A stretch of 64,000 nt of DNA from the NCBI GenBank assembly GCA_947467145.1, contig CANIGJ010000003.1:143065-207064 (forward strand), in the 5' to 3' direction. A model generated the notes under the pieces. That model was not told the origin of the DNA. It did no database searches and saw only the letters and a list, made by a program, of their open reading frames with translations. A program made the position numbers and the translations under genes. The stretch comes from Rhodospirillaceae bacterium. Lineage in GTDB: Bacteria > Pseudomonadota > Alphaproteobacteria > Rhodospirillales > UBA2165. Of the stretch, positions 3,575-24,309 are shown piece after piece (positions within the stretch are counted from its first letter, which is position 1; every line of letters starts with the position of its first letter).

Positions 3575-5296
3575 TTAGCCGGTTTCATCCTCGAACGTAT
3601 CGGGCCGATGATGTTGGCCACGCGCGGCGGCTAACGCATCCTCGATCGTCGGTTTGAATTGCACGCGCGGCGGCCGCACGTCATGGGCCTTCAGCACCCG
3701 TCGTAATGCAGGCGCTGCCCCCGTGATCATCAGTCTGATGCCGGCCTGTTCGGCCTTGCGCGCGAAGCCGTCGATGGTGACGGCGCCGGTCGAATCCAGA
3801 AACGGGACCGACGACAGATCGAGCACCAGCGTTTTGCCGGCATCGGCGACACGGTCGAGCACCGCGATCACCTTCGACGCGGCGCCGAAAAAGAACGCGC
3901 CGGAAATGCGGTAGACGAGAATATCGGGATCGCTCGCCAATGATGCGTCGTAGCGTTCGCGCGCCTCTGCACCGTCCGGTAAGTCGGGGGGAAACAACGG
4001 TGCGTGCGTTTGAATCTCGATCGCCTGCGCCATGCGACTGAGGAACAGCAGCACGCCGATGGCGAAGCCGATCAGGATACCGGCCGTCAGATCGTAGAAG
4101 ACGGTCAATAGGAAGCTTGCCAACAGAACCACGGCGTCGCCGCGCGACGCGCGCAGCAGCACGGCGAATTCGTGTTTCTCCGCCATGTTCCAGGCGACAG
4201 TGACGAGCACGGCCGCCAAGGCTGCCAACGGGATGTAACCGGCGAGCGATGCCGCGAAGACCATGAAGGCAAGCAGGAACGCCGCATGCAGCATGCCCGC
4301 GATCGGGCCGATGGCGCCGGCGCGCACATTGGTTGCGGTGCGCGCGATGGTGCCGGTGGCGCACAGGCCGCCGAACAAAGCTGCCCCCATATTGGCGATG
4401 CCTTGCGCGACCAGTTCGCAGTTCGAGCGATGCCTGCGCCCGGTCATCCCGTCGGCGACGACGGCGGACAGCAAGGATTCGATGGCGCCCAGAAGCGCGA
4501 TGGCAAACGCATCGGGCAAAACGGCGGCGATGCGGGCCAGGCTGAGATCGGGCAGGTGTGGCGTCGGCAACGTATTGGGAATGCCGCCGAATCGGCTGGC
4601 GATGGTTTCCACCGGCAGAGCGAACGCCCAGGTCGCGGCGGCGGACAGGGCGACCGCGATCAGCATGCCGGGCACGCGCGGGCCGATCTTGCGGCACAAT
4701 ACGATGAGCGTCATCACGGCAAGTGCGACGACGATGGCGATCGGATTGGCGCTGGAGATCGCCGCGCCAAGCGCTTGCAGTTTGGCGACAAGCGGTCCGG
4801 GTTCCGGTCCATCGAGCGTGAGGCCGAAAAAATCCCTGAGCTGACTCGCCGCGATGATGACCGCGATGCCGGCGGTGAAGCCGACGGTGACGGGGAAGGG
4901 GATGAACTTGATATAGGTGCCGATGCGCAACGCGCCGCCGATCGTCAGCATGATACCGGCGAGAAACGTCGCCAGTAGGAAACCGTCGAAGCCCTGGCGT
5001 TGAATGATGGCGGCGACCAGCACGATAAAGGCGCCGGCCGGGCCGCCGATCTGGAAGCGGCTGCCGCCAAAGGCCGAAATCAGAAAGCCGCCGACGATGG
5101 CGGTATAAAGGCCGCGCTCCGGCGAGGCGCCGGACGCAATTGCGATGGCGAGCGACAGCGGCAATGCGACAATGGCGACGGTCAGTCCCGCGACCGCATC
5201 GGCGCGCAGTTCCTTGAGGCCGTAGCCTTCACGCCAGACAGTGATGAGCTTGGGCGTGAACAGATCGGCGGAGTTGGGTTCGGGCGCGTTCGGCAT
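3575..5296 (-). CDS. SulP family inorganic anion transporter with C-terminal STAS domain
   Basis: 573 aa with many TM segments. The N-terminal motif LRADAVAGLTVAIVALPLSLAIAIASG is SulP-typical. The C-terminal about 120 aa (ILVYRISGAFFFGAA...LDLSSVPFLDSTG) is STAS-like. Confidence 0.85.
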   Translation of the reverse strand: MPNAPEPNSADLFTPKLITVWREGYGLKELRADAVAGLTVAIVALPLSLAIAIASGASPERGLYTAIVGGFLISAFGGSRFQIGGPAGAFIVLVAAIIQRQGFDGFLLATFLAGIMLTIGGALRIGTYIKFIPFPVTVGFTAGIAVIIAASQLRDFFGLTLDGPEPGPLVAKLQALGAAISSANPIAIVVALAVMTLIVLCRKIGPRVPGMLIAVALSAAATWAFALPVETIASRFGGIPNTLPTPHLPDLSLARIAAVLPDAFAIALLGAIESLLSAVVADGMTGRRHRSNCELVAQGIANMGAALFGGLCATGTIARTATNVRAGAIGPIAGMLHAAFLLAFMVFAASLAGYIPLAALAAVLVTVAWNMAEKHEFAVLLRASRGDAVVLLASFLLTVFYDLTAGILIGFAIGVLLFLSRMAQAIEIQTHAPLFPPDLPDGAEARERYDASLASDPDILVYRISGAFFFGAASKVIAVLDRVADAGKTLVLDLSSVPFLDSTGAVTIDGFARKAEQAGIRLMITGAAPALRRVLKAHDVRPPRVQFKPTIEDALAAARGQHHRPDTFEDETG

Positions 5297-12488: not shown

Positions 12489-12764
12489 GACAAGACTCCA
12501 TCTTCGACAGCATCAAGAACGTCGCGCTTGACGAGCCGGGCAGAGCCGATCACGAGGTCAAAGAGGTTTGAGCCCGAAATACATCATGCTTCGTAAATTG
12601 AATTAAATAGGCGCGCACGAGCGAAGCGGTGGCGCGCGGCGTCAATGGCAACCGGCGCATTTTGATCGCCCTCGCTCGCGCCGATGCGTTGAGAATGTCA
12701 TCGTTCGATGCCACAATGTGCGCCGATCGCGGCGTCCCGGGCGTATTCGGGCAGGAGAGGACAA

Positions 12765-14018
12765 ATGAATAAAAGCAACGATGTACCGGCCCTGGTATTC
12801 AGCCATTTCGGGGTGTTCTGCCACGATGTGGCGGCGCTTGAGGATTTCTATACCCGGGTCATGGGCTTCGCGGTCAGCGATTGCGGCCATGTCCATGCCG
12901 GCCCGGTCGAATTCGACATGTCCTTCATGACGCGGCGCCCGTGGGAGCATCATCAGCTCGTCATCGCCGGCGGCCGACCGCAGGCTCTGCCCTCCACCGT
13001 CAACCAGATTGGCTTCCTGGCGCCGAGCCTCGCCGAATTGCGCCGTATCAAGGCGCGCCTGGAAAAAGAACCGGGCGTCACTGGTATCGAAGCGGCCGAT
13101 CACGGCATCTCCTGGACGCTGTATTTCGTCGATCCGCAGGGCAATCGCATCTCGGCGTCGGTGAACACCGGCTGGTATGTGCCGCAGCCGGCCTATTGGC
13201 CGCTCGATCTTGCCTGGACGGATTCTGAAATCGTCCGCCAGACCGAGGCGCAGTGCCGTGCCACCCCGGGCTTCATGAACCGCGATGCGTGGCGCGACGA
13301 GACGCACAAGGTGCTGGCGTCGATGAACCGTCTCGCCAGCCAAGCGACGCCGAGTGTCGATGCCAAGATCACCTCGACCGAAAGCGTGTTCCGCCGCCCG
13401 GTCGGTACGACCGCGCCGGCCGATGCGTTCCCGCGCCTCGCCATGCATCAGGTCGGCATCTATGTCGCCGACATGGACAAGCTGCAGGCGTTTTATGAAA
13501 AGACCTTGGGCTATCTCGTGACCGGCAAGGGCCGCCTGCCCGCCGTCGGCTCGCAACCGGCCGCCGACGTCGTGTATCTGACGCGCGATCCCAATCAGGT
13601 GGCGCAACTGATCTTGGTATCAGGGCGCGACGCCAAGGTGAAATCAAGCGTCAACCAGATCACTTTCCGCGTGCCCGATATCGCGACCTTGCGCGGCATC
13701 AATGAAGCGCTGCGCACGATCCCGGGCTGCGCCAATTTCCGCCCGATCAATCACGGCAATTCCTACTCGCTCTATTGCGACGATCCGGAAGGCAACGCGC
13801 TCGAGATTTCGTTCGAATCGGAATATTACATTCCGGCGCCGATCGCCTGGCCGCTCGATTTCGGCATGGACGATGCAACCTTGCTCAAGCATGTGTCGGA
13901 TCGTGTCCATGCAACGCCGGGCTTCATGCCGCGTGCCGAATGGAAGGCGCGCTCGCGCGCCGAACTTGTCGCTTCGGGCCGTATCGAGGCCGAAGACCTC
14001 GTCGAGCATCTGTATTAG
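12765..14018 (+). CDS. Internally duplicated VOC (glyoxalase/extradiol dioxygenase) family protein
   Basis: ORF 12708..14018 trimmed to the ATG at 12765, which follows GGAGAGGA. Two homologous halves each have a VOC-like module plus a conserved tail (Y[VI]P.P..WPLD....ATPGFM.R..W). Confidence 0.7.
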   Translation: MNKSNDVPALVFSHFGVFCHDVAALEDFYTRVMGFAVSDCGHVHAGPVEFDMSFMTRRPWEHHQLVIAGGRPQALPSTVNQIGFLAPSLAELRRIKARLEKEPGVTGIEAADHGISWTLYFVDPQGNRISASVNTGWYVPQPAYWPLDLAWTDSEIVRQTEAQCRATPGFMNRDAWRDETHKVLASMNRLASQATPSVDAKITSTESVFRRPVGTTAPADAFPRLAMHQVGIYVADMDKLQAFYEKTLGYLVTGKGRLPAVGSQPAADVVYLTRDPNQVAQLILVSGRDAKVKSSVNQITFRVPDIATLRGINEALRTIPGCANFRPINHGNSYSLYCDDPEGNALEISFESEYYIPAPIAWPLDFGMDDATLLKHVSDRVHATPGFMPRAEWKARSRAELVASGRIEAEDLVEHLY

Positions 14019-14021
14019 AAG

Positions 14022-14894
14022 ATGAGGATCGTCCGATACGCTCTCGGCAGTGAAGCACGACTTGGGTTGCTGCTGTCCGACGACCGAGTCGCCGAATTGC
14101 CAGGCAACGACGATCTCGTCGCCTGGCTGCAGGCCGGCAAGCCGACGCAAAGCGCGTTTGCGCGCCCGCTGGCCGATTGCAAGTTGCTGGCTCCGGTGGC
14201 GCGGCCCAGCAAAATCATTGCGGTCGGGCGCAACTACCGTTCCCACAATCGCGAAATGTCGGCCGGCGATGGGCGTTTCCCCAATGTCGTGCCATCGGCC
14301 TGGATCAAGGCGACATCGACTCTTGCGGGTGCCTTCGACGACGTTGTGAAACCGCGCGCGACCCAGAAACTGGATTACGAAACCGAGCTGGCCGTGGTCA
14401 TCGGCAAGCGCTGCCGTCATGTGCACGAAGACGACGCTGTTTCGGTAATCGCGGGCTATACCGTCGCGTCAGACATCACGGCGCGCGATGTCGTCGCCAT
14501 CGAACGGGCCGAGGGCAACCAGCTCCTGGGCAAGATGTTCGATACCTTCTGCCCGATGGGGCCCTGGTTCGTCACCGCCGACGAAGTTCCCGATCCCATG
14601 AACTTGTCCTTGATCACACGCGTCAACGGCGAAGTGCGTCAGGAGTCGAACACCGCCAACATGATCTGGCCGATTGCCAAACTGATCGCGTACGTCTCGC
14701 AGATGACCTTGGAAGCGGGCGATATCATCCTGACCGGCACGCCATCGGGCGTCGCCATGGGACGAAAGGCCGGCGACTGGTTCTTGCAGGCGGGCGACGT
14801 GTTGGAATCCGAACTCGGCGGTATCGGCGTCATGCGCAACCGCATCGTTGACGCTGCGGATCAGCCCACCAGTTGGGACTGGGCGAAGGCCTAA
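14022..14894 (+). CDS. Fumarylacetoacetate hydrolase (FAH) family protein
   Basis: 290 aa. KIIAVGRNYRSH, ELAVVIGK, ARD..., MIWPIAKLIAYVSQMTLEAGDIILTGTPSGV are the FAH-family C-terminal domain blocks. It starts 3 nt after the VOC gene. Confidence 0.85.
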   Translation: MRIVRYALGSEARLGLLLSDDRVAELPGNDDLVAWLQAGKPTQSAFARPLADCKLLAPVARPSKIIAVGRNYRSHNREMSAGDGRFPNVVPSAWIKATSTLAGAFDDVVKPRATQKLDYETELAVVIGKRCRHVHEDDAVSVIAGYTVASDITARDVVAIERAEGNQLLGKMFDTFCPMGPWFVTADEVPDPMNLSLITRVNGEVRQESNTANMIWPIAKLIAYVSQMTLEAGDIILTGTPSGVAMGRKAGDWFLQAGDVLESELGGIGVMRNRIVDAADQPTSWDWAKA

Positions 14895-15535
14895 GCGGCC
14901 GCCAGTTTCCGGCTCGAAAGTGCGCTGACCGCAATCACCAGTCCGATCGCCACCGCGTGGATGGCCAGATCGATCACGGTCACGTCGAACGGGTGGAAGA
15001 ATTGCAGCAGGAATGCGGCAATCCCGGCGACACCGAGACCGCCCATGGCGGCGACCGAGGCCGGGGCGAGCGGCTTCGCGTGCAGTAGCATCCACGACAA
15101 GACGAGACCGAGTGGGATGCTCGTGCCCAGCAGGATCAGGAAACATTCCGTGCTTTCGGCGAGATCGGTCGGCGTGCCCGCGATCCAGCCTTGCAGGCAA
15201 CCGAGCCCGGTGGTGGCCAACCATGTGGCCAGCGCGGGCAGGGGCAGCAGCGCCCAGGCGCGACTGCGATCGGGCAGGCTCATTTCGAACGCGGCCACGA
15301 CCGCCAGCAGGCCGGTCGCGAGCGTGGCGGTCAACTCGACCATCTGACGCACATCGTGCGCGCGGCCGATGAAGGCGGACGTATCGGCAAACGCGGCAAT
15401 TATGCCGCCGGACCCGATCGCCACGCAGCCCAGCCAGGCCGCCGCGCGCATCAGGGGATGGCGCAGGCGATGGACGGGCCCGGCATCGGCGCTCAGCCGC
15501 GCGATCAATTGATCGGTCGTATCACTCATCGTCAC
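14891..15535 (-). CDS. nrsF: NrsF family (DUF1109) membrane anti-sigma factor for sigma F
   Basis: 214 aa. The N-terminus DQLIARLSADAGPVHRL is followed by about 6 TM segments, with conserved Cys in GLGCLQGW and STECFLIL. The start overlaps the stop of the ECF sigma gene by 14 nt. Confidence 0.8.
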   Translation of the reverse strand: MTMSDTTDQLIARLSADAGPVHRLRHPLMRAAAWLGCVAIGSGGIIAAFADTSAFIGRAHDVRQMVELTATLATGLLAVVAAFEMSLPDRSRAWALLPLPALATWLATTGLGCLQGWIAGTPTDLAESTECFLILLGTSIPLGLVLSWMLLHAKPLAPASVAAMGGLGVAGIAAFLLQFFHPFDVTVIDLAIHAVAIGLVIAVSALSSRKLAAA

Positions 15536-16100
15536 CCCGACTTCCTTTCAGGCGCGCCCGCAGTGTTTTTATGGCGCGATGCACATTGACCTTGAGGGCC
15601 GCGATGGACTTGCCGCTGACCTGCGATGCTTCGCGCAGCGACAGGTCCCGCACCTTCAAAAGCTCAATGGCCTCGCGTTGTCCTTCGGGCAGGGCGGCAA
15701 TCGCGGCGCCTAGTCCGGAGGCTTGCACGGTCAGCTCCGTGTCCTTGTTCGCTCCAGGATCGGCAAAGGTTTCATAGGCGACGTCGTCCGCGGTCTCGAC
15801 CGCGGCAATCCGCCCGCGCCGCCGGATCGCATCGATCGACCGCCGCCGCGCGATGGTAGCCAACCAGGCATCGAACGGGCGGGCCGGATCGTAGGTATGC
15901 CGGACGCGATGCACCGTCAGCAGGACGTCCTGCACGACATCTTCGATGCGATCTCGGCGATGCTGGCGCGCGACCACGGTGCGGATGAAGGGCACGGCTG
16001 CGCGCAACAGCTGCTCATAGGCCGCGCGGTCGCCGTCCTGGGCGGCCTGCATCAGCCGCGACCAGTTTTCGCGATTTGTGTTGTCGCCCTGTGTAACCAT
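15522..16100 (-). CDS. sigF: ECF RNA polymerase sigma factor (SigF-type)
   Basis: ORF 15522..16295 trimmed to the ATG at 16100 (MVTQGDNTNRENWSRLMQAAQDGDRAAYEQLL..). It has region 2 (DVVQDVLLTVHR..FDAWLATIARRRSIDAIRRR) and region 4 (LPEGQREAIELLKVRDLSLREASQVSGKSIAALKVNVHRA). It is co-transcribed with nrsF. Confidence 0.85.
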   Translation of the reverse strand: MVTQGDNTNRENWSRLMQAAQDGDRAAYEQLLRAAVPFIRTVVARQHRRDRIEDVVQDVLLTVHRVRHTYDPARPFDAWLATIARRRSIDAIRRRGRIAAVETADDVAYETFADPGANKDTELTVQASGLGAAIAALPEGQREAIELLKVRDLSLREASQVSGKSIAALKVNVHRAIKTLRARLKGSRGDDE

Positions 16101-16117: not shown

Positions 16118-16179
16118 CAAACAGATACGGGCGGCCATTCGGACGCCCGCGCAATGTCAGCATAACTGGAGAGACACAG

Positions 16180-16464
16180 ATGCAAAAGGTTTCCACCAAA
16201 GGCGCTCTGCTCGCCGCGTCCGCTTTCGCGACTTTCGCTGTGATGGCCGCCGTTTCGCCGTCCAAGGCCGGCCCCGCGCCGGAGCCGACCTTCAAGGCCG
16301 AGAAGTGCTATGGCGTCGCCGCCTCGGGCCAAAACGATTGCGCGTCGGCGGGCAGCAATTCCTGCGCCGGGACCGCGACCAAGGCGAGCGACCCGAAGGC
16401 CTGGATCTATGTGCCGGCCGGGACGTGCACCAAGATTCAGGGCGCCACTCTGAAGGCGATGTAA
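16180..16464 (+). CDS. bufA: DUF2282 / BufA1-type bufferin precursor peptide (Sec signal peptide + Cys-containing core)
   Basis: ORF 16078..16464 trimmed to the ATG at 16180, which follows TGGAGAGA. MQKVSTKGALLAASAFATFAVMAAVSPSKA is a signal peptide. The core EKCYGVAASGQNDCASAGSNSCAGTATKASDPKAWIYVPAGTCTKIQG has the four Cys in the DUF2282 pattern. Confidence 0.85.
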   Translation: MQKVSTKGALLAASAFATFAVMAAVSPSKAGPAPEPTFKAEKCYGVAASGQNDCASAGSNSCAGTATKASDPKAWIYVPAGTCTKIQGATLKAM

Positions 16465-16485: not shown

Positions 16486-17328
16486 ATGTTGGACACTTCG
16501 GCGGTACATGCTGGCGCTCTGGTCGGAATCGGCCTGCGCGGACCGCATCTGGTCGAATTGCCGCGACGCCGCCCCGCGCTCGATTTCGTCGAAGTCCATG
16601 CCGAGAACTATATGGATTTCGGGCCGGCGTTCGATCGACTGATGGACGTGCGGCGCGACTACCCCGTCAGTCTGCATGGTGTCGGACTATCGCTGGGCAG
16701 CGCCGATGGGCTCGATGCGCGACATCTCGCGCGCTTCCGCGATCTGATCGCGCGTATCGATCCGATTCTTGTCTCCGAACATCTCGCCTGGTGCATCGCG
16801 GGCGGCGTCTATCTGAATGATTTGCTGCCGCTTCCCTATACCGAAGAAGCGCTTGACCTCGTCGCGCGCAATGTTGCGCGGGCACAGGAGGCGCTCGGCC
16901 GTCGTTTGCTGGTCGAAAATCCGTCGCGTTATCTCAACTTCGCCCATTCGCCGATTCCCGAAGCGGAGTTCTTAGGCGCACTGGTGGTGCGCACCGGCTG
17001 CGCTATTCTCTGCGACATCAATAATATCGTCGTGAGCGCGCATAATGTCGGCGAAGACGCGAGCGCTTATCTTGAGAAACTGCCACGCGCAGCGGTGCAG
17101 GAAATTCACCTGGCGGGACATAGCGTTCAGTCGATCGATGGGCGAACCATCCTGATCGACGATCACGGATCGCCGGTCAGTGATGAGGTCTGGCGGTTAT
17201 ACGCGCGCGCCCGGCAGACATTCGGCGCCGTGCCGAGCTTGATCGAACGCGATCGCAATCTGCCGCCGCTCGATGAATTGTTGGCCGAAGCCGATCGCGC
17301 AAGAGTTGATCATGCTCTCGCTGCTTGA
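16486..17328 (+). CDS. bufB: DUF692 / MNIO (multinuclear non-heme iron oxidative) enzyme, BufB-type
   Basis: 280 aa with a TIM-barrel DUF692 pattern: GIGLRGPH...DFVEVHAENYM...LHGVGLSLGS...VSEHLAW...LVENPSRYL...DINNI.VSAHN...EIHLAGH...LIDDHG. It starts 21 nt after bufA. Confidence 0.88.
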   Translation: MLDTSAVHAGALVGIGLRGPHLVELPRRRPALDFVEVHAENYMDFGPAFDRLMDVRRDYPVSLHGVGLSLGSADGLDARHLARFRDLIARIDPILVSEHLAWCIAGGVYLNDLLPLPYTEEALDLVARNVARAQEALGRRLLVENPSRYLNFAHSPIPEAEFLGALVVRTGCAILCDINNIVVSAHNVGEDASAYLEKLPRAAVQEIHLAGHSVQSIDGRTILIDDHGSPVSDEVWRLYARARQTFGAVPSLIERDRNLPPLDELLAEADRARVDHALAA

Positions 17329-18082
17329 AATCCAAACGGCATTCGCCGGCGCCTTGTTATATGACGGCGCCGCCGATCTTGGGGACTGGCTGCGCGACGA
17401 CGGCATTGCCGCCACTGCGCGGATCGACATCTATCGCAACAATATGCAGGCCTCGCTGAGCGCGGCACTCGGCGAGATGTTCCCGGTCATCCGCCGTCTC
17501 GTCGGCGATGGCTTCTTTGCCTACGCGACCCATGAATTCGTCAGCCAGCATCCGCCGGTTTCGCCCTGCGTGGCCGATTACGGCGCGGGCTTCGCCGACT
17601 TCCTGTCTGCCTTTGCACCATGCTGTGAATTGCCCTATCTGCCTGATGTCGCGCGCTTCGAACGATTGCTGCACGACGCCGCGCGCTGTGCCGATGCGCC
17701 TCCACTCGATGCGTCGGCGCTCGCTGGGATCGACGCATCGGATGCTGGGCGTCTGGTTTTCACGCTCCAGCCGTCGCACGGCTATCTCTGTTCGCCGTGG
17801 CCGGTGACGGCGATCTGGCGCGTCAATCAGGATGGCCGCGATGGCGCGGTCGATCTGCAGGGTGGCGGCGTCCTGGTCGAGGTCTGCCGCCCCGACGGCA
17901 TTGTCGAGTTCCGTGAATTGCCTCCAGCGGATTTTGCCTTTCGCGCCGCGTTGGCCGGTGCCGCAACATTTGCCGATGCGCTGGTGGCCGCGTCCGATCG
18001 CGACGCCGCGTTCGATGTCGCCGCCGCCTTGGCCGAATTGTTGGCCGATCGCGCCATCACTGGCGTTCGGCTTATGGAGTGA
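17312..18082 (+). CDS. bufC: DUF2063 domain protein, BufC-type MNIO partner
   Basis: ORF 17273..18082 trimmed to the ATG at 17312 (MLSLLEIQTAFAGALL...IDIYRNNMQASLSAALGEMFPVIRRLVGDGFFAYATHEFVSQHPP). This is the conserved DUF2063 N-terminal region. It overlaps bufB by 17 nt. Confidence 0.8.
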   Translation: MLSLLEIQTAFAGALLYDGAADLGDWLRDDGIAATARIDIYRNNMQASLSAALGEMFPVIRRLVGDGFFAYATHEFVSQHPPVSPCVADYGAGFADFLSAFAPCCELPYLPDVARFERLLHDAARCADAPPLDASALAGIDASDAGRLVFTLQPSHGYLCSPWPVTAIWRVNQDGRDGAVDLQGGGVLVEVCRPDGIVEFRELPPADFAFRAALAGAATFADALVAASDRDAAFDVAAALAELLADRAITGVRLME

Positions 18083-18539: not shown

Positions 18540-19352
18540 TTAAGACGTGGTGCGTTTGCGCGGACGTTTCGGCGCGACCTTGGGATAATTGACGGCCGTT
18601 TGGTGCACGTGGTGACCCATCAGGTCGGCCGCTTCGGCGGCTTTGCCCTTTTCGATGAGCTGTAAAATCTGCTCGTGAATTTTCTGAATGCGTTTGCGCG
18701 CCGACAGCGTCAGCTCGACGTCGTCGCGCCGGGTCACCAGACGCAAGGCGCGAAACAGCGAACTCAACACCGGATTCTGCGTGCTCTTGGCGACGCAGAC
18801 ATGGAATGCAAGGCCGTTGTCCTGGAACGCATGTACGGAGCCGATCAGATCGGCGCCGTCCTGCACGATCGCATGTAACTCCTTGATATTGTCGGCAGTG
18901 CGGCGCTGGGCGGCGAGGCGGGCGGCCGTCATCTCGATGACATGTTGCATCTCGAATATCTGCGGCAGGTTCACATCCGCTAGTTTAAACTGTACCGCCA
19001 ACGCCTCGGCGAAACTGTCTGGGTGTCCTTCGGCGATCCAGGCCCCACCTTTCGCCCCTGAGCGAACCTCGATGATGCCAAGACCCTGCAGCGATTGCAG
19101 CGCCTCGCGTGCGGTGCGCCGCCCGACCTTGAATTTTTCTACAAGCGTACTTTCCGAGCCGAGAAAATCGCCGGGACGAAGCAGGTCCTCGAAAAGCTGG
19201 CTCTTGACGTGGGCGACAAGCGCATCCGACGCCCGAGATGACGATTGCGGTTCGAATTCGAGCGGCGAAGAGATCTTGGGGCGGCTTTTTCGCAAAGGCT
19301 GGGTCCGATGGCGACAACGATACGATTGGCGGAAACTATCGTGTTTTCGCAA
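18540..19352 (-). CDS. GntR/FadR family transcriptional regulator
   Basis: N-terminal wHTH LRPGDFLGSESTLVEKFKVGRRTAREALQSLQGLGIIEVRSGAKGGAWI plus an all-helical FCD-like C-terminal domain. The start is uncertain: TTG at 19352, or an in-frame TTG at 19292. Confidence 0.75.
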   Translation of the reverse strand: MRKHDSFRQSYRCRHRTQPLRKSRPKISSPLEFEPQSSSRASDALVAHVKSQLFEDLLRPGDFLGSESTLVEKFKVGRRTAREALQSLQGLGIIEVRSGAKGGAWIAEGHPDSFAEALAVQFKLADVNLPQIFEMQHVIEMTAARLAAQRRTADNIKELHAIVQDGADLIGSVHAFQDNGLAFHVCVAKSTQNPVLSSLFRALRLVTRRDDVELTLSARKRIQKIHEQILQLIEKGKAAEAADLMGHHVHQTAVNYPKVAPKRPRKRTTS

Positions 19353-19420
19353 ATATTCAAACGCTGGTCCGGGACGGCGACCCAGATTCAGCTAGTGTCC
19401 GTATTTGTCGCCTGCTAAAG

Positions 19421-19436
19421 ATGTCATATATGACAT
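19421..19436. promoter_or_regulatory. Perfect 16-bp palindrome ATGTCATATATGACAT, candidate GntR-family operator
   Basis: It reads identically on both strands. It contains the GT-N-AC core typical of GntR/FadR operators. It lies in the divergent intergenic region between the regulator and the Rieske oxygenase gene, just upstream of AAGGAGG (19444-19450). Confidence 0.45.
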
Positions 19437-19457
19437 ATATAAAAAGGAGGCCTCGTC

Positions 19458-20765
19458 ATGACGTCGGCGCGCGATAACGAAACTCTCACGTCGGTCGGTC
19501 CCGGCACACCGATGGGCGAATTGATGCGGCGCTATTGGGTTCCGGCTGCGCTCTCCAGCGAGGTGACCAAAGACGGCGATCCGTTGCGGCTTAAATTGCT
19601 ATGCGAGGACCTGATCGCGTTTCGCGATTCGTCAGGCCGCGTCGGCGTGATGGATCATCGCTGCCCGCATCGTTGTGCCTCCTTGTTCTTCGGGCGCAAC
19701 GAAGAAGGTGGTATCCGTTGCGTCTATCACGGCTGGAAGTTCGACGTCGACGGCAACTGCACCGACATGGCAAATGTGCCGCCGCACCAGGATTTCAAGC
19801 ACAAGGTTCATGCCAAGGCCTATCGCGCCGAAGAACGCGCTGGCCTAATCTGGGTCTATATGGGCGATCAGGCGCGCGTGCCGGCCCTGCCTGATCTGGA
19901 GGTGTTGCAACTGGACGCCGACGCGGTGGGAATCGATGTGTTTCAGCGCGAATGTAATTGGTTGCAGGCGCTCGAAGGCGACATCGATACATCCCACGTC
20001 GATTTCTTGCACGGCGGAACGCGTACGGTCGATGATTTTCCGCCGGACGATCCGCGCCGCTACGGCGCGATCCATCGCGATCCGGAATACACGATTGCGG
20101 AAACGGACTGGGGTACGATGTATGGCGCCCATCGCCCCGCCGATCAGGGACGGCGCTATTGGCGTGTCGCCCATTTCCTGTTTCCGTTTTGGACGATGAC
20201 GCCGGCAGGCGTTTTCGACACCTATATCCATGCGCGCGCCTGGGTGCCGATGGACGATCACCACACCATGGGCTTTGGTCTATCGAAAAAGGGATCGCGC
20301 CTGACGGCGATCGGCAACGCCAAGCAGGGCATTGCGCTTCACGTCGAGGAACGCTTACCCAATACCACCGACCGGTTCGGCCGGTGGCGCTTTGCTGCCA
20401 ACGCGCGCAACGATTACCGGATCGATCGCGCTGCCCAACAATCGCAAATCTATAGCGGCATCACCGGCATCACGCTGCAGGACCAGGCGATGACCGAAAG
20501 CATGGGAGAGGTCGTTGATCGTTCGCTGGAACATCTGGCGCCGAGCGATCGCATGATTGCCGTGACGCGCCGTCGGCTTTTGTTTGCTGCTCAAGCCTTG
20601 CAGAAAGACGCCGTGGCACCTCCCGGCGCCGATGAGCCCGGTGTGTTTCATGGCGCACGTGGCGGCTATTACCTGGCGCCGGAAAATGCCGAATGGCAGG
20701 ATTTTTATAAAGAAAGACTCACCTCGGTACGCCGCCAAGCCAGCTCCGCCGCAGCGGCGGAATAA
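19458..20765 (+). CDS. Rieske (2Fe-2S) non-heme iron oxygenase, alpha-only (phthalate/VanA/PobA-like family)
   Basis: Rieske motif CPHRCASLFFG...CVYHGWKF. The catalytic domain has NWLQALEGDIDTSHVDFLH (Fe ligands). No beta subunit follows. There is a strong RBS. Confidence 0.85.
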   Translation: MTSARDNETLTSVGPGTPMGELMRRYWVPAALSSEVTKDGDPLRLKLLCEDLIAFRDSSGRVGVMDHRCPHRCASLFFGRNEEGGIRCVYHGWKFDVDGNCTDMANVPPHQDFKHKVHAKAYRAEERAGLIWVYMGDQARVPALPDLEVLQLDADAVGIDVFQRECNWLQALEGDIDTSHVDFLHGGTRTVDDFPPDDPRRYGAIHRDPEYTIAETDWGTMYGAHRPADQGRRYWRVAHFLFPFWTMTPAGVFDTYIHARAWVPMDDHHTMGFGLSKKGSRLTAIGNAKQGIALHVEERLPNTTDRFGRWRFAANARNDYRIDRAAQQSQIYSGITGITLQDQAMTESMGEVVDRSLEHLAPSDRMIAVTRRRLLFAAQALQKDAVAPPGADEPGVFHGARGGYYLAPENAEWQDFYKERLTSVRRQASSAAAAE

Positions 20766-20808
20766 AGCAATAATCAAGTATAATCCTACAGGGAAGATCG
20801 GACCAACC

Positions 20809-22353
20809 ATGCTCACATTCGCATATCGACTGACGGTCTGCGCCGTCGCACTTGTCATGTCGGCGACACCGGGCTTCGCGCAGAAATCCAAGGATACCTT
20901 CCGCCAATTGCATGCGCAGGCGATTGCGACGCTCGATCCGTATCTCGATCCGCGGCCCGAAGTGTATTTCGCCAGCGAGATGCCGTTCGACCGATTGATC
21001 ATGCTGGACGAAGGGGCCGAGAAATTCGTCGGCAATCTTGCGCGATCCTGGGCCCGCCCCGATACCAAGACGATCGAGATGGAGTTGCGTGACGACGTCA
21101 CCTGGAGCGACGGACAGAAATTCACGGCGGACGACGTTATTTATACGCTGGGGTATCTGTCCAATCCGAAGTCGAATTTTCGCTTCGCGAGCGATTACGA
21201 CTGGATCGAGCGCGTCGAGAAGCTCGGGCCGCACAAGATTAGGATCGTCGCATCGCGTACTGTTCCTTACGACCTGGCGCGGCTAGGTGGATACACCTTT
21301 ATGTTTCCTCAGCACGTTCACGGGCCGCTTGAGTCCAAGCAGGATTTTGGCCGTGCTCCCGTTGGAACCGGCCCGTACAAAATCGTGCAGGTCGACAAGA
21401 ACACGGGAATTCGTGCGGAAAAGCGTACCGACCATGTCCACGCCAATAACGTAAAGAAGTCGCCATCGATTAAAAATGTGGTTCTGCGCGGTGTGCCGGA
21501 CCGGGGAACGCGCGTCGCCGAGCTTTTGGCCGGCAATGTTGATGCGATCCACGACGTCTCGCCCGATCAGGCCGAAGATTTGGCCAAGTCGCCGCAATTG
21601 GCCATGACGGTGACACTTCCCTTCGCCTATCAATACATGATGATCGATATGAAGGGGCGCAGCGGTGTGGCTCCGCTTAAGGACAGGCGCGTGCGGGCCG
21701 CGATACTGCACGCGATCGATCCGGAGGCGATCAACATAATGATCGGCGGAAAGTCCGTTAGCCTGACGCGCCCGCCGGCGCTGTGCCACCCGATGCAGCT
21801 TGGCTGCGACTATTCGCTCGAAACGCCGAAGTTCGACCGGGCGAAGGCGCGCGGCCTTTTGGCCGAGGCCGGCGTCCCATCCGGTTTCGACGTCGCGATC
21901 ACGACGAACAGTCTCGCCGGAAAGGATATCGCCGAGGTCGTGGCCGGTCAGCTGCGTGCGATTGGCATCCGCGCCAACGTCGACCCGCAAACCTTTGCCG
22001 CCTATCGCCAACTGCAGAGCGACGGCAAGATCAATATGATGATTTCTGGCTGGGGCGGCGGTGGGTTGCCAGATGTCGGCGGCACGCTTGATTTCCTGTT
22101 CGAGGGCGGCTCGCGCGATTATCACGGCGTGCCCGGTTGGGTTGAAGCCGCGCAGAAGGCCAACACTGAAAACGACGATCGGGCGCGACGCGCCATCGTG
22201 AAAAAACTTTTCGACGAGGTAACGACGGAAGGTTATATCGTGCCGATGGCGCCGATCCCGCGCTTTTGGATGCATACCCGTGAGGTCAAGATCGCGACGC
22301 CCAGCAGCTTCAATGCCTACGGTGCGGATGCATGGGGCTTTTCGTGGGAGTAG
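20809..22353 (+). CDS. ABC transporter substrate-binding protein, family 5 (peptide/nickel/opine type)
   Basis: ORF 20584..22353 trimmed to the ATG at 20809 (MLTFAYRLTVCAVALVMSATPGFAQ, a signal peptide). The length (about 514 aa) and the WSDGQKFTADDV.YT motif are typical of SBP_bac_5. There are no adjacent permease or ATPase genes. Confidence 0.8.
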   Translation: MLTFAYRLTVCAVALVMSATPGFAQKSKDTFRQLHAQAIATLDPYLDPRPEVYFASEMPFDRLIMLDEGAEKFVGNLARSWARPDTKTIEMELRDDVTWSDGQKFTADDVIYTLGYLSNPKSNFRFASDYDWIERVEKLGPHKIRIVASRTVPYDLARLGGYTFMFPQHVHGPLESKQDFGRAPVGTGPYKIVQVDKNTGIRAEKRTDHVHANNVKKSPSIKNVVLRGVPDRGTRVAELLAGNVDAIHDVSPDQAEDLAKSPQLAMTVTLPFAYQYMMIDMKGRSGVAPLKDRRVRAAILHAIDPEAINIMIGGKSVSLTRPPALCHPMQLGCDYSLETPKFDRAKARGLLAEAGVPSGFDVAITTNSLAGKDIAEVVAGQLRAIGIRANVDPQTFAAYRQLQSDGKINMMISGWGGGGLPDVGGTLDFLFEGGSRDYHGVPGWVEAAQKANTENDDRARRAIVKKLFDEVTTEGYIVPMAPIPRFWMHTREVKIATPSSFNAYGADAWGFSWE

Positions 22354-22360
22354 CTTGGCG

Positions 22361-22988
22361 TCAGCGCGTCGGCAGCACCTGGCCGACATAGGCCGAACAG
22401 CCGACGACGATGCCCATGGCGAGCATGTGAATCCCCCAATCGCCGAGATTCATTTCGAAGCCATGGAAAAACTGTAACAGGGCGACAGCCGCCGACGAGA
22501 TGGCCAAACCGGCCATGGCGGACGCCGACCAGCCGAGATGCGCGCGGTGGAGGCGGAGCAGTGGGAACAGCAGCAGGGCAATCGGGATGCTGGTCGCCAG
22601 GATGAACAGGAAGCAATCCGGGCTATGACCGTAGAGTAGCTGCTCGGCCGGCTTGTCGAGCGGAACGTCGATGCCAATAGCTCACCGTCAGGGCCTGCCA
22701 GACGACGAACAGCACGAGCGGGGTCACGCGCCACCGCAAGGTGCGCCCGCGGACATGGATGCGGAAGGCGGCGACCGCTGCGGCCGCGCTCGTCAGGACG
22801 GCGCCCAGCAATTCCAGCCGTTCTTCGGGGTCATGCAGGGCGCGATCGATCAGATGGGGCTTGGCGAAAAACAAGACGAACAAACCCGCCGCCCCGGCCA
22901 GCACAGCCAGAACGCTTAGGGCGCTTAACAGCGGCGCCGAGCCAACAAAAAGGGCAAGGGCGCCGGGGCGCTTGCCTGTCTCGCTCAA
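22361..22988 (-). pseudogene. Frame-interrupted orphan NrsF (DUF1109) paralog
   Basis: Two frames together align to the NrsF at 14891-15535. The upstream ORF (22623..22988) gives ..LELLGAVLTSAAAAVAAFRIHVRGRTLRWRVTPLVLFVVWQALTV. My translation of the frame that is open from 22681 down to the TGA at 22361 gives AIGIDVPLDKPAEQLLYGHSPDCFLFILATSIPIALLL...LLQFFHGFEMNLGDWGIHMLAMGIVV. A 1-nt shift is needed near 22680. Confidence 0.6.
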
Positions 22989-23082
22989 GTTGACGGTCTT
23001 TCTAAGATGAGGCCTGTCTAGACAGGAAAATAGCGACTCGGCCCAGCTTTGACGAGAGACGGATTACCCGGGGGTCGGGGGG

Positions 23083-23120
23083 CAAAACGAAAGCCCGCCA
23101 CTGGGGTCAGTGACGGGCTT
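23083..23120 (-). terminator. Rho-independent terminator downstream of the LigB-type dioxygenase gene
   Basis: Minus strand: AAGCCCGTCACTGACCCCAGTGGCGGGCTT followed by TCGTTTTG. The GC-rich stem-loop lies 26 nt after the stop at 23146. Confidence 0.6.
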
Positions 23121-23145
23121 CGGTTCGATCCGAGACGGTCTGCGG

Positions 23146-24162
23146 TTACTGCCAGGTGGCAAACGCCATGGCGTTGCCGGTGCCCGCTTCGGAGCGGTAG
23201 CACGGCACGTAATCGAGCAGGTTCATTTCGTAGTTCGTGGTCGACAGAACGCCCAAGGTCGCGATCCAGTTCTTGGTCTCCGACGTGCCCGAATTGAAGA
23301 TGATGTTGGGCTCGCTGATGATCGTCTTATAGTCGCGGGTCTGCATCGCCTTCAGCATCTTGCGGTCCCACGCCTCGTCGATGACGAAGTGCGACAGCCC
23401 ACCCGACGCCACGACCAGCACGCGCTTGTCGCTGTCCCACTTCTGGATGCCGCGGCTGATCGCCTGGCCCAGCTCGAAGCAGCGCTTCGGCGTCGGCTGG
23501 TTGGGCGGGAAGAAGGTGTTGATCAGCACCGGCACCAGCGGGATCGCCTTGTCCTTCAGGATGCGGCGATAGATGAAGGTGACCGCATGGCCGATGCCGC
23601 GCGGGCCTTCCGGGCCTTCCGGCACCTTTTCCGATGCGGTGACGTCGAATTCCGACTCCATGCATTCGGCGACGATGGTGTTGGCGAGATCGGGCACGCA
23701 GTCGTACCAGGTATCGACCGGTGTATGGCGCGACGCTTCGACGAGCTGCACCGCGGGGTCCTTGTGCGCGTGCTTGGCGGCTTCGTAGCCCGTGTTCAGC
23801 ACCTTGTCGCCGGAGAAGATCGAATAACTCGGCTGCACGTCGTCGAAGAACCATTCATGCTGGTCATCGCCGATCAGCACGATCACATCGGGTTTCATCT
23901 TCTGGACGGTTTCGCCCAGCTTATCGAGCGCCACCTGGCAGCGGTTGAACCGTTCGGCGCGCACGTCGGGCAGGATTTCCTTCTCGAAATGCTCCTGCTC
24001 GCTGTTGCGCTTGGCGAGTAGCTGCGGGAAATCGTACACGCCGCCGCGGAAATGGTGCTCTTTCAGGTTGCGGTCGAAATTGGCGCGCAGCGGCCATTGT
24101 TCCGCGGGGAGAATAAGCAGTGGCCCGTGGGACGATCCCATCCCGCCGACGATCTTTGCCAT
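23146..24162 (-). CDS. Class III extradiol ring-cleavage dioxygenase (LigB family)
   Basis: ORF 23146..24222 trimmed to the ATG at 24162, which follows AAGGAAAG. MAKIVGGMGSSHGP... and later VLVVASGGLSHF are LigB-family hallmarks. 338 aa. Confidence 0.75.
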   Translation of the reverse strand: MAKIVGGMGSSHGPLLILPAEQWPLRANFDRNLKEHHFRGGVYDFPQLLAKRNSEQEHFEKEILPDVRAERFNRCQVALDKLGETVQKMKPDVIVLIGDDQHEWFFDDVQPSYSIFSGDKVLNTGYEAAKHAHKDPAVQLVEASRHTPVDTWYDCVPDLANTIVAECMESEFDVTASEKVPEGPEGPRGIGHAVTFIYRRILKDKAIPLVPVLINTFFPPNQPTPKRCFELGQAISRGIQKWDSDKRVLVVASGGLSHFVIDEAWDRKMLKAMQTRDYKTIISEPNIIFNSGTSETKNWIATLGVLSTTNYEMNLLDYVPCYRSEAGTGNAMAFATWQ

Positions 24163-24309
24163 GACGCGACTTTCCTTTGAATGATTCTCAATAAGAGTTG
24201 GCGCAAAAAATGACAGGATCAACGAAGTCCGTCAATCGGCGGGCCTTGACCGCGATCAAGGCCGCCCGCGCGGCCTTGGCCCATGCTAGAGTCCTGAAAC
24301 TCTGGGGAT

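Follow-up and report, generated by a model that had tools for sequence, protein, structure and literature searches.

A probable bufferin-1-type metallophore precursor encoded in a canonical nrsF-sigF/bufABCD locus of a Stellaceae-like alphaproteobacterium

What does a 94-codon open reading frame (ORF) with a four-cysteine product, located beside a sigma factor gene in a 64,000-nucleotide stretch of alphaproteobacterial DNA (the window), encode, and where does it begin? A sequence-only reading had proposed that the product is the precursor of a bufferin. The reference for such an assignment is Bufferin 1 (BufA1; CCNA_03363/CC3254) of Caulobacter vibrioides, encoded by buf1ABCD together with sigF-nrsF (Leprevost et al., PNAS 2024, PMC11626156; Kohler et al. 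2012, PMC3511200). Re-reading and re-translating positions 16180 to 16464 reproduced exactly the ORF coordinates and sequence given in that reading, with an ATG at 16180, 94 codons, and a stop codon at 16462 to 16464. The 94-aa product, BufA, consists of MQKVSTKGALLAASAFATFAVMAAVSPSKA (signal part) followed by GPAPEPTFKAEKCYGVAASGQNDCASAGSNSCAGTATKASDPKAWIYVPAGTCTKIQGATLKAM (mature part). Several kinds of evidence indicate that bufA is very probably the precursor gene of a bufferin-1-type RiPP metallophore in a complete, canonical nrsF-sigF/bufABCD locus (Table 1).

With 3487 homologs at an E value of ≤1e-3 in a large protein collection, and a score of 79 bits against a gathering cutoff of 22.4 for Pfam PF10048 (DUF2282, now named BufA1; profile positions 2 to 51 of 53), bufA is not a chance ORF. 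The Pfam score also bears out the proposed DUF2282/BufA1 membership, and PF10048 was found on all homolog matches listed. A further remark in the sequence-only reading, that an ORF this small is easily lost, did not hold: in four independent public assemblies, the product predicted by gene finders is precisely this 94-aa protein, labeled PF10048:BufA1 by Pfam, and an exact-sequence search found the identical protein already in NCBI, ENA, and Logan.

Table 1. Features of the nrsF-sigF/bufABCD locus, in window coordinates
Feature	Coordinates	Strand	Basis
nrsF, anti-σF membrane protein (DUF1109/NrsF), 214 aa	14891..15535	-	PF06532, 49.8 bits vs cutoff 26.8
sigF, ECF sigma factor, 192 aa from ATG 16100	15522..16100	-	Sigma70_r2, Sigma70_r4_2
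σF-type promoter motif GTAACC-N15-CGAA	16093..16117	+	Match to published σF-binding sequence
Shine-Dalgarno-like GGAGAG	16168..16173	+	Read from sequence; 6 nt 5' of bufA ATG
bufA, 94-aa putative bufferin-1-type (DUF2282/BufA1) precursor	16180..16464, including stop codon	+	ORF, PF10048, homologs, public gene calls
Predicted Sec signal peptide, residues 1-30	16180..16269	+	Hydropathy, -3/-1 rule
Core peptide, 64 aa	16270..16461	+	Four invariant Cys, Buf1 spacing
Codon of C43 (CysI)	16306-16308	+	
Codon of C54 (CysII)	16339-16341	+	
Codon of C62 (CysIII)	16363-16365	+	
Codon of C83 (CysIV)	16426-16428	+	
bufB, MNIO (DUF692) bufferin maturase, 280 aa	16486..17328	+	PF05114, NF050167
bufC, DUF2063 (HvfC_N) partner protein, 256 aa	17312..18082	+	PF09836; same length on public contigs
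bufD, DoxX-family membrane protein, 142 aa	18090..18518	+	PF07681, 64.5 bits; same length on public contigs

The bufA frame is also part of a longer, uninterrupted ORF of 128 aa that begins with GTG at 16078 and ends at 16464 on the plus strand. This ORF, present in the ORF list as the sequence-only reading had described it, carries a 5' extension that overlaps the start of sigF (16100 or 16163). Although the open frame is unbroken from 16078, the 128-aa ORF is almost certainly not the actual product. The extension holds the σF promoter motif, and should therefore lie 5' of the transcript start, in addition to overlapping the sigF start. No ribosome-binding site was found at 16078, whereas GGAGAG precedes the ATG at 16180. 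The N termini of homologs align with MQK..., the 94-aa version was chosen by gene callers, and a comparable spurious 57-aa extension of CC3254 has been corrected experimentally (PMC3511200). The position of the σF motif, the ribosome-binding site, and the homolog N termini together favor ATG 16180 as the true start of bufA.

The σF motif within this extension ends 62 nt before the bufA ATG and overlaps the start codon of sigF on the opposite strand. In Caulobacter, the σF-binding sequence is GTAACC-N16-CGAA, and the transcription start of CC3254 (bufA1) was mapped to -61 (PMC3511200). The N15 spacing in the window is common to the closest relatives, and in the best 80 genomic loci from a scan of genome contigs, which underlie all counts of related loci given here, the exact motif with N15 to N17 spacing was found 5' of bufA in 39, with a median distance to the ATG of 62 nt. 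Four matches to the motif occur in the window, compared to 0.27 expected, and that of bufA alone is intergenic and correctly oriented. The matches at 4235 and 38936 have N14 spacing, lie within long ORFs, and are probably due to chance. The remaining one (23124..23149, minus strand), the window match with the published N16 spacing, is situated 135 nt upstream of a second NrsF-like ORF. It overlaps a stop codon, that of a LigB-type dioxygenase gene (23146..24222), precedes a terminator-like hairpin, and is probably a chance match as well.

On the minus strand, public gene calls begin sigF at ATG 16163. With this start, the product has 213 aa, only 16 nt separate sigF from bufA, and the bufA promoter falls inside sigF. 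Because profile positions 5 to 180 of 184 in NCBIfam PRK12512 align with sigF, the 192-aa product from ATG 16100 (MVTQGDN...) fits the profile length better. In some close relatives, tblastn similarity in the sigF frame extends upstream of 16100, probably as the antisense of conserved bufA sequence. No σF motif with up to one mismatch was found upstream of sigF on the minus strand, so sigF autoregulation is unsupported here.

The start of nrsF overlaps the end of sigF, and its product contains Cys 37, 113, and 131. Among 28 NrsF homologs encoded beside buf loci, C131 is present in all 28 and C113 in 22. The conserved sensory cysteines of Caulobacter NrsF are C131 and C181, 50 residues apart (PMC3511200), compared to 18 residues for the conserved pair here. 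With adjacent σF and NrsF genes and a GTAACC-CGAA motif, albeit of N15 spacing, the locus appears from its sequence to belong to the σF/NrsF-controlled subtype of Buf1 biosynthetic gene clusters (BGCs). The second NrsF-like (DUF1109) gene in the window (22361..22988, minus strand) has no adjoining sigma factor and is split over two frames. In a tblastn search with the window NrsF as the query, residues 27 to 109 matched in one frame and residues 127 to 211, at 40% identity, in a second (E value of 2e-16 for the two jointly). This gene looks like a frameshifted paralog or pseudogene, or the result of an assembly indel.

The N terminus of BufA has the features of a Sec signal peptide. The n-region contains K3 and K7, the h-region (approximately residues 8 to 25) comprises about 18 uncharged residues with a mean hydropathy of about 2, and the c-region (SPSKA) places Pro at -4, Ser at -3, and Ala at -1 of the predicted cleavage site, SKA|G. 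The same rule-based call, made from hydropathy and the residues at -3 and -1, gave a consistent picture in 46/46 homologs: the n-region is basic, the mean hydropathy of the h-region is >1.6, the -3/-1 residues are small, and the leader is free of Cys. The signal peptide with an A-x-A-type site recognized in the sequence-only reading thus has its features in BufA and throughout these homologs, with cleavage as a prediction. Column conservation across the 46 homologs is 0.53 for residues 1 to 30 and 0.80 for residues 31 to 94, the pattern expected when a signal peptide precedes a folded domain. The precursor length of 94 aa is inside the 80 to 120 aa expected of BufA1.

The same hydrophobic N terminus could be an uncleaved anchor, which would make BufA a small integral membrane protein. 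The legacy description of DUF2282 is "Predicted integral membrane protein," the JGI name of homologs is "uncharacterized membrane protein," and BufA does have one hydrophobic stretch of about 18 residues. However, in 46/46 homologs a Pro at -4 and small -3/-1 residues (S-K-A) come after this stretch, and for Buf1, mass spectrometry and a Bla fusion demonstrated that the precursor is exported by Sec and cut at the predicted site (PMC11626156). An uncleaved membrane anchor is therefore extremely unlikely, and an exported, cleaved precursor is the preferred reading.

The mature part of BufA contains exactly four Cys, at core positions 13, 24, 32, and 53 (43, 54, 62, and 83 of the precursor), within the motifs named in the sequence-only reading. 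That reading had proposed an alignment to the DUF2282 family, in which the Cys should fall in conserved columns. In an alignment with 46 homologs that are 50 to 86% identical to the window BufA, C43, C54, C62, and C83 are all invariant, as are 14 further columns (P32, A33, P36, E41, K42, Y44, G45, N52, D53, G64, D71, W75, P79, and G81). A mature part with exactly four Cys was found in 46/46 homologs. The sole NCBIfam match of BufA is to the BufA2 model (NF050166), at 25.5 bits and below the cutoff of 60, so the family call rests on Pfam and the alignment. Since it misses this cutoff and has four Cys rather than six or twelve, BufA is not a Bufferin 2.

A search of PDB sequences with BufA returned a chance match only (E value of 0.83). 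An AF2 model built from the 46-sequence alignment is of low confidence (mean pLDDT of 58) and so adds little; it places C43 in the first strand (residues 40 to 44), whereas C83 lies on a short turn of helix that follows the strand of residues 75 to 79. The modeled topology agrees with the published description of Buf1 and lends weak support to the assignment. The proposed modification also predicts masses. A shift of -4.03 Da on each of C54 and C62 contributes to a calculated monoisotopic mass of 6337.93 Da for the predicted modified mature peptide, compared to 6348.01 Da unmodified (-10.08 Da). As the residue after CysII is Ala and not Lys, CysI to CysIII lie on a single 26-residue tryptic peptide, CYGVAASGQNDCASAGSNSCAGTATK.

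The neighboring genes bear out the bufferin reading: bufB, bufC, and bufD come directly after bufA, and sigF-nrsF lies upstream. BufB scores 328 bits against PF05114 (MbnB_TglH_ChrH) and 358.5 bits against the NCBIfam equivalog NF050167 (MNIO_BufB), for which the cutoff is 310, and its closest solved relative is 3BWW (DUF692; E value of 4e-35). The bufB start lies 21 nt 3' of the bufA stop, and the bufC start overlaps the bufB end by 17 nt. BufC scores 80.6 bits against PF09836 (cutoff of 27.2) and is under the cutoff of NCBIfam HvfC; no PDB sequence matched BufC at an E value of ≤0.01, although 3DEE is a cited structural relative. One public assembly (ENA ERZ28613009; L084, 1228..2823, equivalent to window positions 16486..18082) encodes an identical BufA, with BufB and BufC called as a 531-aa fusion (MNIO plus HvfC_N). 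Given the 17-nt overlap in the window, a single indel would fuse bufB and bufC, and the fusion could be genuine or could stem from an error in the assembly.

Among the best 80 related loci, BufB is encoded downstream in 68, BufC in 68, BufD in 56, and a divergent SigF beside bufA in 41. The closest genomes in this set are from Stellaceae, Caenispirillum-like, and other alphaproteobacterial metagenome-assembled genomes (MAGs), and no Caulobacter is among the 80. In 12 of the 80 loci, no BufB was found within reach of BufA. These DUF2282 genes, which have no MNIO or DUF2063 gene in the fetched stretch, are at L004, L006, L008, L010, L039, L052, L061, L063, L064, L066, L070, and L071. The L064 sequence ends about 50 nt after bufA and is therefore uninformative on neighbors, and in L004 and L006 a DoxX gene directly follows the DUF2282 gene. 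Several stand-alone DUF2282 genes coexist with a complete buf cluster in the same genome; the Stellaceae MAG JBKQTR01, for instance, has three of them. A 2025 survey (PMC12452194) already describes precursors that stand alone, the presence of σF/NrsF genes in Buf1 clusters, and the status of DoxX as a core gene.

Stand-alone genes of this kind (12/80 loci, the truncated L064 among them; PMC12452194) raise the possibility that BufA is an unmodified periplasmic Cys-rich protein that binds metal or performs redox chemistry through free thiols or disulfides, with BufB and BufC inactive or acting elsewhere. In the window, however, a BufB that exceeds its equivalog cutoff is encoded 21 nt 3' of bufA, with bufC overlapping bufB and bufD close behind, and the function of Buf1 needs BufB, BufC, and modified Cys (PMC11626156). 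We consider an unmodified protein very unlikely, and a BufB- and BufC-modified bufferin remains the favored explanation.

Beyond the buf genes, the window is ordinary chromosome, with dnaX, rmuC, transporters, and aromatic-ring dioxygenases. Horizontal acquisition is not indicated, as codon-position GC and the composition profile of the buf genes are unremarkable. The genes flanking the locus (12708..14894, plus strand, and 18540..24222) are those of aromatic catabolism, not metal resistance, and encode a double glyoxalase/extradiol-type protein, an FAA hydrolase, a GntR/FCD regulator, a Rieske/LigXa_C oxygenase, and a LigB-type dioxygenase. Among the large ORFs of the window, there was no metal-resistance island, copper-resistance gene, or second MNIO cluster.

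This setting bears on the identity of the physiological signal. A genuine bufferin could have a trigger or target other than copper, such as chromate, cadmium, gold, mercury, or an oxidant (hypochlorite), acting via NrsF/σF; this would be a variant of the main explanation and not an exclusive alternative. In Caulobacter, chromate and cadmium were the inducers through which the σF regulon, with CC3254-3257 (the buf1 operon) among its members, first came to light (PMC3511200). Gold and cadmium as well as copper switch on gig operons (PMC11626156), and MerC-Buf1 fusions suggest roles with other metals (PMC12452194). An Azospira σF/NrsF system responds to hypochlorite (PMC4436054), and the window is without copper-resistance genes. 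Against these points, the phenotype and affinity (Kd of ~6e-15 M for Cu2+) of the two characterized bufferins concern copper (PMC11626156), and the window BufA retains all invariant family residues. A trigger or target other than copper is accordingly unlikely. From the aromatic-catabolism neighbors, the lack of nearby copper-resistance genes, and the σF/NrsF control, one could also propose that the bufferin serves a non-copper stress in this Stellaceae-like alphaproteobacterium, in the form of another thiophilic metal or an oxidant sensed via the NrsF Cys, a setting in which DoxX may be relevant. This more specific proposal is rather doubtful and, if true, would be a functional nuance inside a known family rather than a new kind of system.

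For the copper-buffering bufferin that we favor, a mechanism can be inferred by homology to the Caulobacter vibrioides system. In that organism, the conversion of CysII and CysIII of Buf1 to 5-thiooxazoles requires both BufB and BufC, which together suffice, and DoxX is dispensable. CysI and CysIV form a disulfide, and the product binds Cu2+ (Kd of ~6e-15 M) and Cu+ and protects against copper (PMC11626156). The sequence-only reading had stated that the outer Cys pair forms the disulfide and the central Cys are heterocyclized, in agreement with that paper. Formation of 5-thiooxazoles was later described as general to PME1-dependent MNIOs, with "captophorins" proposed as the class name and DUF2282 proteins as one precursor group (bioRxiv 10.1101/2025.11.18.689057).

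Transferred to the window, metal stress would cause NrsF to release σF, and bufABCD would then be transcribed from the GTAACC-N15-CGAA promoter. A cytoplasmic BufB-BufC complex would oxidize CysII (C54) and CysIII (C62) to 5-thiooxazoles, after which the precursor would be exported by Sec and cut by signal peptidase after Ala30. A disulfide between CysI (C43) and CysIV (C83) would stabilize the small folded protein, and the thiooxazoles would chelate Cu(I)/Cu(II) in the periplasm to buffer excess copper. The modification probably does not need BufD (DoxX). The chemistry, export, and metal binding of BufA are predictions, and the explanation as a bufferin meets no contradicting evidence.

BufA is of an already known kind, a routine member of the bufferin family with nothing atypical, and the locus adds one more canonical nrsF-sigF/bufABCD arrangement to a family of which thousands are catalogued. 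Its value lies in the prediction of a periplasmic copper-buffering peptide in the host, for which exact masses and residues are supplied, and in showing that a small bufferin precursor and its start codon are recognizable from raw sequence without tools.

Among known systems, the closest is Buf1 of C. vibrioides, in which the core Cys are residues 12, 23, 31, and 52 (PMC11626156). Comparison by the residue positions given in the text of that paper shows identical Cys spacing (11/8/21), so the bufferin reading of the four Cys matches a characterized bufferin. Ser30, Ala32, and Trp44 of Buf1, which the paper locates near the heterocycles and on the β-sheet, correspond to Ser31, Ala33, and Trp45 here at a uniform offset of +1, so both have Ser-Cys-Ala around CysIII and a Trp 13 residues beyond. 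Both precursors also belong to the DUF2282/BufA1 Pfam family and have a Sec signal peptide, and both loci have the gene order bufA-bufB (MNIO)-bufC (DUF2063)-bufD (DoxX) adjoining sigF-nrsF, with a GTAACC...CGAA σF promoter about 60 nt 5' of the start. Even the annotation artifact of a spurious N-terminal extension is common to the two. The window locus differs in its shorter core (64 aa versus 68 aa), in the residue after CysII (Ala here and Lys in Buf1), and in the promoter spacing (N15 versus N16). It is from another alphaproteobacterial lineage and is known from sequence alone.

The gig (gold-induced genes) operons of Cupriavidus metallidurans, Legionella pneumophila, and Bordetella pertussis likewise have four genes, for DUF2282, DUF692, DUF2063, and DoxX proteins, and are now considered bufferin BGCs (PMC11626156). 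They are under other regulators (e.g., BvgAS in Bordetella), in contrast to the predicted σF/NrsF control of the window locus, which is of the Caulobacter type. Bufferin 2 (BufA2, Buf_6/12Cys) and oxazolin, fontiphorin, and gonophorin (EGKCG repeats) are collectively captophorins. All are Sec exported and modified by an MNIO and a DUF2063 protein (PME1) to carry Cu-binding 5-thiooxazoles (PMC11626156; bioRxiv 10.1101/2025.11.18.689057), but these other captophorins constitute separate precursor families with six or twelve Cys or KC repeats, and the Bufferin 2 BGCs are without sigma factor and NrsF genes (PMC12452194).

Methanobactins (MbnA/MbnB/MbnC) are more distant. They too are copper-binding RiPPs with heterocycles derived from Cys by an MNIO, and BufB is distantly homologous to MbnB (E value of ~1e-10 to PDB MbnB chains). 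BufB scores 76.7 bits against the MbnB model TIGR04159, for which the cutoff is 325, and its precursor is a DUF2282 protein with a Sec signal, so the window locus does not encode a methanobactin. Methanobactins instead carry oxazolone and thioamide groups, are made with a leader peptide in place of the Sec signal and with MbnC as the partner protein, and are secreted for copper acquisition.
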